From a virus (taxonomy: Duplodnaviria; Heunggongvirae; Uroviricota; Caudoviricetes): DNA of 8,054 nucleotides. The notes beneath the pieces are model-generated. The model did no database searches. It was not told the DNA's origin and saw only the letters and a program-made list of their open reading frames with translations. The DNA is taken from positions 1-8,054 of IMG/VR virus record IMGVR_UViG_2778261448_000002, one strand, 5' to 3'. The stretch's first letter is position 1. Every line of letters begins with the position of its first letter. A program made the translations under genes and the position numbers. Below, in pieces: positions 1,976 to 2,861 of this stretch.

Positions 1976-2217
1976 GCAAGGCCACCCCACCGGGAGGACC
2001 CATGAAAAATGAGAGCAATTATCATTTATGCTCAATTAAACATCAGCATTATCGCAGCCCCTCACTGAAGGACTGCTGTAATGCTGATTGTTCAACATCA
2101 AAAAACCCAATCTGTTGCAAGTTATAAAAGCAACAAACGACATTGCGCGTTAAGATTTTCTTAATATTTAAGAAATATATTTTTTAATCTCATTTATTTT
2201 TGCAAAAGACTTTTCAT

Positions 2218-2793
2218 ATGCAGCGTCGAGAAATAAAGAAAATTACTTATTTAATCACTTTGATTTTAACTACTCTTTTGTTTGTTTATTTTTTAAGAAC
2301 ACCCACCACAATCAATATGAAACAGGCGCATAAAATAAATCAACAACACCAGACAATTTTCCTTATCCGTCACGGTGAACGATGTGACAGAAGCAAAAAT
2401 GCATGTCTCTCAAGCAATAAAGGAATTACCGTCAATGGTGCCATTAAAGCTCGTGATTATGGAAAAATATTTAGCAATACTTTCCCGTCATTCAGACTTT
2501 ACTCCACGGATACCATACGGACAATGCAGACAGCCTGTTTTTTCTCTGGAGGAAAAGCAGCCTCCCGGATACCGTTGGCTGCAACATGCGGACTTGATGC
2601 TGCAAAGAACATACTCAAATTGTCATCCGATAATAAAACTACCGTTATATTCACCCATAATCATTGCCTGACACAAATAGCAAAAAAAATGAAATGGTGG
2701 AAGTTAAAGCCAGAATATCTTGAAACACTGGTTCTTCATATCGAAAACAATCGTCTCATTCTTGACGGAAAACTGACTCACGATAAAGCGTAA
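2218..2793 (+). CDS. Ais/PmrG-like histidine phosphatase (LPS core heptose(II)-phosphate phosphatase family), secreted/membrane-anchored; prophage moron
   Basis: ORF track 2200..2793 (the track start is TTG; first ATG is 2218). Contains RHGERCDRS, GITV, LYS, IRT, IFTHNHCLT.IAK and LDG blocks that align with E. coli Ais as recalled from memory. N-terminus MQRREIKK followed by a hydrophobic stretch looks like a signal peptide or anchor. Opposite strand to the phage late genes and visibly AT-rich. Confidence 0.75.
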   Translation: MQRREIKKITYLITLILTTLLFVYFLRTPTTINMKQAHKINQQHQTIFLIRHGERCDRSKNACLSSNKGITVNGAIKARDYGKIFSNTFPSFRLYSTDTIRTMQTACFFSGGKAASRIPLAATCGLDAAKNILKLSSDNKTTVIFTHNHCLTQIAKKMKWWKLKPEYLETLVLHIENNRLILDGKLTHDKA

Positions 2794-2829
2794 CAATCAT
2801 TCAAAGAGTCAACATATTTTCTGCATTAA

Positions 2830-2861
2830 CCCCGAACAGTTCCTCTGCCGGGGTTTTGTAT
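2830..2861 (+). terminator. Intrinsic terminator after the Ais-like gene, between convergent genes
   Basis: Stem ccccg (2830-2834) pairs with cgggg (2849-2853), followed by ttttgtatt on the plus strand. It lies just 3' of the Ais-like stop and ends a few bp from the endolysin stop. Confidence 0.5.

Follow-up and report, generated by a model that had tools for sequence, protein, structure and literature searches.

A phosphatase gene between the lysis cassette and cos of a lambdoid prophage

The DNA analysed here is a stretch of 8,054 nucleotides (nt), positions 1 to 8,054 of the IMG/VR virus record IMGVR_UViG_2778261448_000002 (hereafter, the window). It corresponds to late genes of a lambdoid prophage, that of a temperate E. 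coli phage, and is read from right to left on the minus strand. The neighbouring phage genes all lie on that strand, while the gap between the endolysin and the small terminase gene holds a gene that stands alone on the plus strand and encodes a histidine phosphatase of the Ais/PmrG subfamily. An initial annotation, made from the sequence alone, had described this gene as a secreted lipopolysaccharide (LPS) phosphatase of Ais/PmrG signature, oriented against the late operon and carried as a moron in AT-rich DNA with its own terminator. The features of the cassette and its boundaries are as follows, with lengths in amino acids (aa).

1248-1787, minus strand: small terminase subunit (DUF1441; PF07278, phrog_141), the first packaging gene left of cos
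1932-2026: conserved cos region just left of the Ais-type gene, with the inferred genome end near 1971/1972
2149..2165, plus strand: PmrA/BasR-box-like direct repeat GTTAAG-ATTTT-CTTAAT
2176..2181, plus strand: -10-like hexamer TATATT, 10 nt downstream of the box, with a predicted transcription start at about 2187-2190
2218 (ATG)-2793, plus strand: Ais/PmrG-subfamily histidine phosphatase gene, 191 aa, with an alternative TTG start at 2200
2221..2292, plus strand: N-terminal segment (codons 2-25), basic RREIKK and then a hydrophobic helix, a predicted signal-anchor or signal peptide
2822..2861, plus strand: intrinsic-terminator-like hairpin and U-tract, predicted to terminate moron transcription shortly before the stop codon of the convergent endolysin gene
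2865-3248, minus strand: M15 endolysin (PF13539), the last gene of the lysis cassette and the right boundary of the moron

Between 2000 and 2861 the sole substantial open reading frame (ORF) is on the plus strand and runs from 2200 (TTG) or 2218 (ATG) to 2793. The ATG start is the one used in the RefSeq annotation of an identical prophage, and the TTG start would give a protein of 197 aa. Both of the motifs LIRHGERCDRSKN and VIFTHNHCLTQ are found in the translation. Against the NCBIfam model NF011945 (LPS core heptose(II)-phosphate phosphatase) the protein scores 207.5 bits versus a cutoff of 142 (E = 1.4e-61), in an alignment spanning residues 9-193 of the 197-aa TTG-start translation. For comparison, K-12 Ais scores 392 bits on this model. 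The more general model PF00300 (His_Phos_1) is passed narrowly, with 23.5 bits versus a threshold of 21.7. Identity is 45% to K-12 Ais (over 159 residues) and about 48% to Salmonella PmrG-type proteins. The NF011945 match, together with the near-identical copies in E. coli genomes described below, argues that this resemblance is not due to chance.

Indeed, the catalytic site is intact. Several positions (R51, H52, E54, R55, C56, D57, R101, H147, N148, H149 and C150) are invariant in 19 aligned family members. These include the nucleophilic histidine and its partner arginine within the RHG motif (R51-H52-G53), the second catalytic arginine R101 in RTxQTA, and the C-terminal H147 and H149 in THNH. 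Conservation of the RHG motif and the downstream histidine relative to Ais/PmrG was central to the original family assignment, which is thus upheld. The phage and chromosomal proteins also have ERCDRS, GITV, RTxQTA and FTHNHCL in common, and this likeness extends well beyond the catalytic core.

Predicted fold and topology

An AlphaFold (AF2) model built on an alignment of 18 relatives consists of an N-terminal helix (residues 2-25) and a compact alpha/beta histidine-phosphatase domain, with a predicted local distance difference test (pLDDT) score of 91.8 and a predicted template modelling (pTM) score of 0.84. A Foldseek comparison with the PDB returned 293 matches at E <= 0.001, and all 50 of the matches listed were histidine phosphatases, among them SixA, PhoE, PGAM5, phosphoserine phosphatases and the histidine-phosphatase domain of MutT1. 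The SixA-like entry 1ujb was among the best matches relative to target length, with a template modelling (TM) score, normalised to the target, of 0.68. When the PDB was searched by sequence it gave no relative, and only fold comparison placed the protein; among the viral structures of BFVD, the matches were remote histidine phosphatases, mostly from giant viruses. The window protein thus has the compact branch-1 histidine phosphatase fold of SixA. Unlike it, SixA is cytoplasmic, acts on the phospho-histidine of ArcB, lacks a membrane segment and is only about 13% identical.

N-termini are hydrophobic in all members of the family, and Cys56 and Cys63 are conserved. A basic N-terminus, a long hydrophobic helix and these cysteines together suggest that the window protein faces the periplasm. 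While the N-terminus of Ais has a cleavage site of the THA-AW type, the helix of the phage protein is followed by RTPTT, with no obvious small-x-small cleavage site, and the protein is therefore probably anchored in the membrane rather than released. The earlier term "secreted" accordingly needs refinement: the N-terminal export or anchor segment is there, but the segment looks like an anchor and the enzyme is more likely to be held facing the periplasm than set free in it.

A self-contained cassette in the bor position

Predicted promoter, gene and predicted terminator form a cassette of about 0.8 kb that lies opposite to the late operon, between the endolysin on its right and cos on its left. 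Its base composition is distinct, with a GC fraction of 0.29-0.41 across about 1950-2850 as compared to 0.52-0.57 on both flanks. When 2794-2866 was folded, a hairpin formed at 2822-2860 around a core of CCCCG/CGGGG, with UUUUGU after it (-16.1 kcal/mol, z = -2.55), an energy matched by 3 of 200 shuffled sequences. The tail of the hairpin is U-rich in the plus orientation only, so that this hairpin would stop the moron transcript before it ran antisense into the lysis genes. A strict scan for consensus sigma-70 promoters and intrinsic terminators across 1700-3000 found none.

On the left, the cassette borders on the inferred end of the phage genome. The records of phages cdtI and Tritos start at the base matching window position 1971, and 1932-2026 is matched by many lambdoid phages; the Ais-type gene therefore lies at the right-hand end of the virion genome. 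In lambda the same right-end position, between the last lysis gene and cos, is taken by bor, which together with lom is a moron expressed from the prophage. The Ais-type gene resembles bor (and lom) in its slot, in its orientation against the late operon, in having its own promoter and terminator, in its atypical composition and in its proposed envelope-directed role in lysogenic conversion. Bor is unlike it in being an outer-membrane lipoprotein linked to serum resistance and no enzyme, and the promoter in the window appears to depend on a host two-component system.

Phages with and without the gene can be compared directly. The Stx2e phage phiP27 and phiSTEC1575-Stx2k carry the same holin-holin-endolysin cassette (92% and 90% identical, respectively) without an Ais-type gene. 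Homology to both starts at window positions 2866-2873 and runs rightwards, so that it ends at the 3′ end of the endolysin gene, and in both phages the slot is filled instead by small late-strand ORFs. As judged from its architecture, from this presence and absence and from its recurrence, the Ais-type gene is a phage moron of the lambda bor type. The slot, strand, composition, terminator and moron status proposed in the initial annotation are thus all in agreement with what was found.

A 41-aa plus-strand ORF at 2002-2127, just right of cos, shares part of its length with the conserved sequence flanking cos and is unlikely to be a gene.

Diverged alleles recur in the same slot and are maintained by selection

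A near-identical cassette (99.4-99.9%) is present in about 30 complete E. coli genomes, mostly of porcine enterotoxigenic E. coli (ETEC). In strain ETEC1730, for example, it lies inside a complete lambdoid prophage adjoining rspB/ynfE. Alleles that have diverged to 54-86% identity, at least nine of them, share this slot, in combination with three kinds of lysis cassette (M15, GH108, and lysozyme plus Rz1) and four packaging modules (DUF1441, Nu1/GpA, ParB_N-TAGT-Terminase_2 and HNH-Terminase_4). Identities to the window protein and settings of individual alleles are given here.

Allele P0003: 86% identical, ahead of ParB_N-TAGT-Terminase_2
Allele P0005: 64% identical, ahead of HNH-Terminase_4 or Nu1/GpA
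Alleles P0113 and P0111: 60% and 54% identical, respectively, behind GH108 endolysins
Allele P0009: 60% identical, behind lysozyme/Rz1
The 193-aa allele: 55% identical, behind Rz in 933W-like podovirus prophages

The 193-aa allele is carried by the Stx1 phage GER2 and by a prophage without stx in O104:H4 outbreak strains, and by 43 complete genomes in total. Relatives are also encoded on 21 IMG/VR viral contigs. A chromosomal ais gene was found in 5392 of 5426 complete genomes. The phage gene is therefore a diverged paralogue carried on top of the host's own copy and no replacement for it.

The GER2 record (MG710528; L002, 8001-8501) has only a 90-aa phosphatase coding sequence (CDS) annotated, yet tblastn aligns residues 27-186 there. 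The short CDS is either truly truncated or the result of a frameshift or a sequencing error, and the same allele is intact (193 aa) in O104:H4.

Might the gene be a decaying passenger, a fragment of host DNA gained by imprecise recombination near cos, unexpressed and inconsequential? Such a reading would account for the strict scans that call no consensus promoter or terminator, for the shortened copies that are known (150 aa in E. coli UMNF18, the CDS of the GER2 record and a 161-aa plasmid copy) and for the rarity of the window-type allele, which occurs in only about 0.5% of complete genomes. It fits poorly with the pattern of substitution. In pairwise comparisons, the ratio of nonsynonymous to synonymous substitution rates (dN/dS) was 0.38 with the 86% allele and 0.12-0.23 in more divergent pairs for which dS could be measured, values well under 1 over saturated synonymous divergence, which indicate that these genes are maintained by purifying selection. 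Furthermore, reading frames are intact across nine diverged allele groups, the promoter box described below is kept within diverged flanks, and at only 45% identity to the host gene it is no recent pickup. We consider the passenger reading highly improbable, and rejected it on the dN/dS values and the intact frames.

A PmrA/BasR-like box precedes most of the phage-borne genes

The direct repeat upstream of the ATG has the form of a binding site for the response regulator PmrA, BasR in E. coli. The pattern TTAAK-N5-YTTAAK has a single match in the 8 kb window, at 2149-2165, where 0.06 would be expected. Verified PmrA boxes of Salmonella read CTTAAG-N5-XTTAAT (PMC3973317), and in PmrA-dependent promoters the box takes the place of the -35 element (bioRxiv 10.1101/2022.07.20.500760). 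The putative window promoter likewise has no -35 element, the box standing where one would be. The same layout is seen at K-12 arnB, with CTTAAG-GTTAA-GTTAAT, a gap of 10 nt and TAAAAT. Of the nine prophage allele groups, eight have a box, a 10-nt gap and a -10 hexamer, at a distance of 64-73 nt before the ATG. In addition to that of the window, these include the following.

P0003: box GTTAAG-ATTTC-CTTAAT, hexamer CATAAT 10 nt downstream
P0005: box CTTAAG-GTGCA-TTTAAG, hexamer TATAAT 10 nt downstream
L021: box CTTAAG-GATTC-CTTAAG, hexamer AATAAT 10 nt downstream
P0113: box CTTAAG-GATTT-TTTAAG, hexamer AATAAT 10 nt downstream
P0111: box ATTAAT-TGCCT-CATAAG, hexamer TATAAT 10 nt downstream
O104:H4/GER2 type and L023-25: box CTTAAG-GATTA-CATAAG, hexamer AATAAT 10 nt downstream

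By eye, the upstream regions fall into several sequence families that are dissimilar apart from the box. Three of these regions were each subjected to 20,000 dinucleotide shuffles. A box matching at 9 or more of 10 positions, with a -10 hexamer at the right distance, arose in 0.1-0.3% of shuffles and a box matching at all 10 in at most about 0.015%, which corresponds to p of about 1e-4 to 3e-3 per region. Judged by this sequence geometry, the promoters of the phage morons very probably depend on BasR(PmrA), although the site could be used by a related regulator such as QseB too. The DNA upstream of K-12 ais has no box of the same geometry on the ais strand. The window promoter thus copies the layout of arnB/pbgP and not anything recognisable upstream of K-12 ais.

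This conserved PmrA-box wiring of a phage-borne gene is new, and it is the main new result of the analysis.

Relatives on plasmids and the question of substrate

In a neighbour-joining tree the family falls into three groups: the chromosomal Ais/PmrG proteins, a clade of IncI1 plasmids, and a mobile clade that comprises the prophage alleles together with plasmid genes. The window protein has much in common with Ais (b2252) and Salmonella PmrG, including the NF011945 subfamily, the RHGERCDRS, RTxQTA and FTHNHCL motifs, a hydrophobic N-terminus and a predicted promoter of the PmrA-box type. Unlike them, it is borne by a prophage in a moron cassette and belongs to a separate clade of mobile elements.

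Of 1,440 plasmids with a match, most owe it to the IncI1 gene, which is named traG in a published table of the IncI1 transfer region (PMC4288162). Its product (for example O3K_25647 of pESBL-EA11) belongs to the Ais family, has about 194 aa, matches the window protein at 40-41% identity and is given the same name by the Prokaryotic Genome Annotation Pipeline (PGAP). Its carrier is a mobile element that builds a surface appendage. It differs from the phage gene in its clade and in lying within the transfer-gene operon of conjugative plasmids. In one such locus (L047, 5001-5585) this Ais-family histidine phosphatase, about 40% identical, is encoded between traF and traH; the gene occurs on well over a thousand conjugative plasmids.

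Closer relatives are found on virulence plasmids. Ais-like genes of C. rodentium pCROD1 and of porcine ETEC plasmids (L004, 5914-6507; L005, 5923-6408; L045, 4001-4582) lie by PefC/AfrB-type fimbrial operons, EAL-domain genes and SPATE/AIDA autotransporters, and a plasmid gene of the P0147 type accounts for 817 indexed blocks in the sequence collection. The fimbrial-plasmid proteins (pCROD1 ROD_RS27185 and that of an ETEC1730 plasmid; "AfrS") share clade, size and motifs with the phage protein at 50-54% identity, and plasmid alleles without a fimbrial operon, such as that of pLD39-1, reach about 63%. In contrast to the phage genes, those of the fimbrial plasmids are set in adhesin loci with AraC or EAL regulators, outside phage DNA. 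They (L004, L005 and L045) also lack the PmrA box; the plasmid allele L006 has it.

These neighbours raise the question of whether the phage gene is a regulatory accessory of the AfrS type, which would co-activate adhesin or fimbrial expression, directly or through envelope signalling, rather than mainly change LPS. Cantey and colleagues reportedly found in 1999 that AfrS, with the AraC-like AfrR, activates the expression of AF/R1 pili. A prophage copy in E. coli UMNF18 (P0012) was deposited as "transcriptional activator AfrS", and the nearest non-phage relatives (50-63%), which are in the same clade as the phage alleles, are those that lie by PefC/AfrB-type ushers, AraC-type regulators, EAL proteins and autotransporters. 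The window, by contrast, holds neither an AraC gene nor a fimbrial operon, and an enzyme anchored in the membrane, with an intact phosphatase site in the periplasm, cannot itself activate genes by binding DNA. Moreover, the plasmid copies in fimbrial contexts are without the PmrA box that marks the phage copies, and the link depends on one deposited name, that of the UMNF18 copy, with homology to the authentic RDEC-1 AfrS by label only. For the window locus we therefore rate an AfrS-type role as improbable.

AraC-family genes do occur in the post-Q slot of two Ais-carrying sister prophages (L001, 23053-24000; L041, 7103-7831). Between them they share 38% identity, neither is related to the AraC gene that accompanies the plasmid Ais-like gene, and as candidate AfrR-like partners they were dropped.

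More serious than a role of this kind is the alternative that the enzyme belongs to the same family and acts in the periplasm on a different substrate, in which case it would change the cell surface in another way than PmrG does. Candidates are the heptose I phosphate or pyrophosphoethanolamine, the 1- or 4'-phosphate of lipid A, Kdo-linked groups, and a phosphorylated carrier lipid or sugar. Identity to Ais/PmrG of only 45-48%, a separate clade and a score under the PmrG equivalog cutoff would all be in keeping with this. Similarly, essentially every host keeps the paralogue next to a chromosomal ais, which makes more sense if the two are not redundant, and IncI1 transfer regions retain related copies as "TraG". 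However, the residues invariant between the phage and chromosomal proteins reach well past the catalytic core, and wiring to a PmrA box fits an LPS-remodelling regulon. We hold a different substrate to be unlikely.

Other features of the window

The rest of the late region to the right of the moron is listed here; at the other end, the large terminase gene follows the small one off the left end of the window.

3245-3902, minus strand: two holins, lysis cassette
4361-4514, minus strand: tRNA-Thr(tgt) and tRNA-Gly(tcc), between the Q gene and the holins
4841-5503, minus strand: Q-type (Q-like) antiterminator
5380-5670, minus strand: YbcO, late-region gene
5670-6269, minus strand: DUF1367, late-region gene

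The lysis cassette (2865-4166) consists of two holin-family genes and the M15 endolysin gene and, like that of phiP27, has no recognisable spanin (Rz/Rz1). Its 218-aa ORF at 3510-4166 is probably over-extended, as RefSeq has a 130-aa holin starting at about 3902. The tRNA pair occupies the slot where stx sits in Stx phages, and the window stays nearly identical to the ETEC prophages only up to 4438, a mosaic breakpoint that falls exactly between the two tRNAs. At 6924-8054 on the plus strand, an AT-rich ORF (about 33% GC) encodes the first 220 or so residues of an approximately 833-aa phage family, phrog_14719, whose N-terminus has an HSDR_N / type IIG restriction-methylase / DrmMI-like nuclease domain. 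An IS1 element, from about 7593 off the window end, interrupts this ORF. Together they look like a disrupted defence-type moron in the nin region.

Discussion

The reading we favour, at a probability of roughly 60%, is that the gene is a lysogenic-conversion moron encoding an anchored periplasmic phosphatase of the Ais/PmrG type, which would be activated by BasR and would remove the phosphate of heptose II. PmrG of Salmonella takes phosphate off heptose II under the control of PmrAB (PMC3720879). In a lysogen, the conserved geometry of the promoter suggests that phosphorylated BasR(PmrA) would activate the phage gene alongside arnBCADTEF, eptA and chromosomal ais. The N-terminal helix is predicted to hold the phosphatase at the inner membrane with its catalytic domain in the periplasm. 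There, by homology to Salmonella PmrG, it would remove the phosphate that WaaY adds to heptose II of the LPS inner core, and loss of this phosphate would leave the surface with less negative charge. Signals that activate BasS/BasR are Fe3+, Al3+ and mild acid. As a speculation, the lysogen may tolerate Fe3+, Al3+ and cationic peptides better, and phages that depend on the core might adsorb to it differently. The effects proposed for the phage protein in the initial annotation, namely heptose(II) dephosphorylation, resistance to cationic peptides and superinfection exclusion, are inferences.

Several observations weigh against this reading. The PmrG equivalog model NF052369 is not passed (110.5 bits versus a cutoff of 170); K-12 Ais likewise falls below that cutoff, at 145.8, so that the model is narrower than the family. 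E. coli Ais itself is still labelled "putative" in the K-12 record, and the activity, expression and phenotype ascribed to the phage alleles are predictions. The alleles form a mobile-element clade separate from chromosomal Ais/PmrG, so their substrate could differ. At the level of expression, the Shine-Dalgarno sequence before the ATG at 2218 is weak, and a generic sigma-70 scan calls no promoter, which is expected of an activator-dependent promoter but is no positive evidence for one. Finally, in the P0009 allele (L015/L016, 5880-6000) the box has decayed, its first half-site reading CAAAAA and not CTTAAG.

The P0009 ORF is intact despite the lost half-site, and this allele may be a natural regulatory variant.

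Temperate phages that remodel the LPS of their host as prophages are familiar from the gtrABC glucosylation and Oac acetylation genes of Shigella and Salmonella phages. Those systems change the O-antigen and adjoin the attachment site, whereas the gene described here would alter the charge of the inner core and adjoins cos. Phage LPS-conversion genes and morons in the bor slot are thus both known kinds, and the bare observation of the gene is not new to databases. Indeed, PGAP already names these prophage genes, and the record of phage GER2 carries one, so that the initial impression of an unrecorded cargo does not stand in that form. It does stand in another sense, as searches of PHROG and PADLOC found no family for the protein and a literature search found no paper on a phage-borne copy.

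One may ask whether the whole mobile clade shares this function. Domesticated by temperate phages as a conversion module controlled by PmrA/BasR, it would let the prophage time the removal of inner-core phosphate by the host sensor of Fe3+, acid and cationic peptides, and its "TraG" and "AfrS" sisters would make the same core edit so that surface appendages assemble or work better. We regard this extension as possible but doubtful. If it were true, heptose II dephosphorylation would be a general tool of mobile elements, with consequences for tolerance to polymyxin and metals, for feedback on BasS signalling and for susceptibility to core-dependent phages, and it would be a possible overlooked contributor to colistin and metal tolerance in porcine ETEC and in strains of the O104:H4 type.

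For the phage gene itself, the favoured reading would mean that the target of a phage cargo enzyme is the charged inner core of LPS and not the O-antigen, under the host regulator of polymyxin resistance. It would provide a clean and testable case in which a host two-component system has captured the promoter of a moron, and it would tie IncI1 "traG" and fimbrial "afrS" to one biochemical activity. If so, prophage content could modulate tolerance to colistin, cationic peptides and metals in porcine ETEC, where colistin use has been heavy, and in the O104:H4 lineage.

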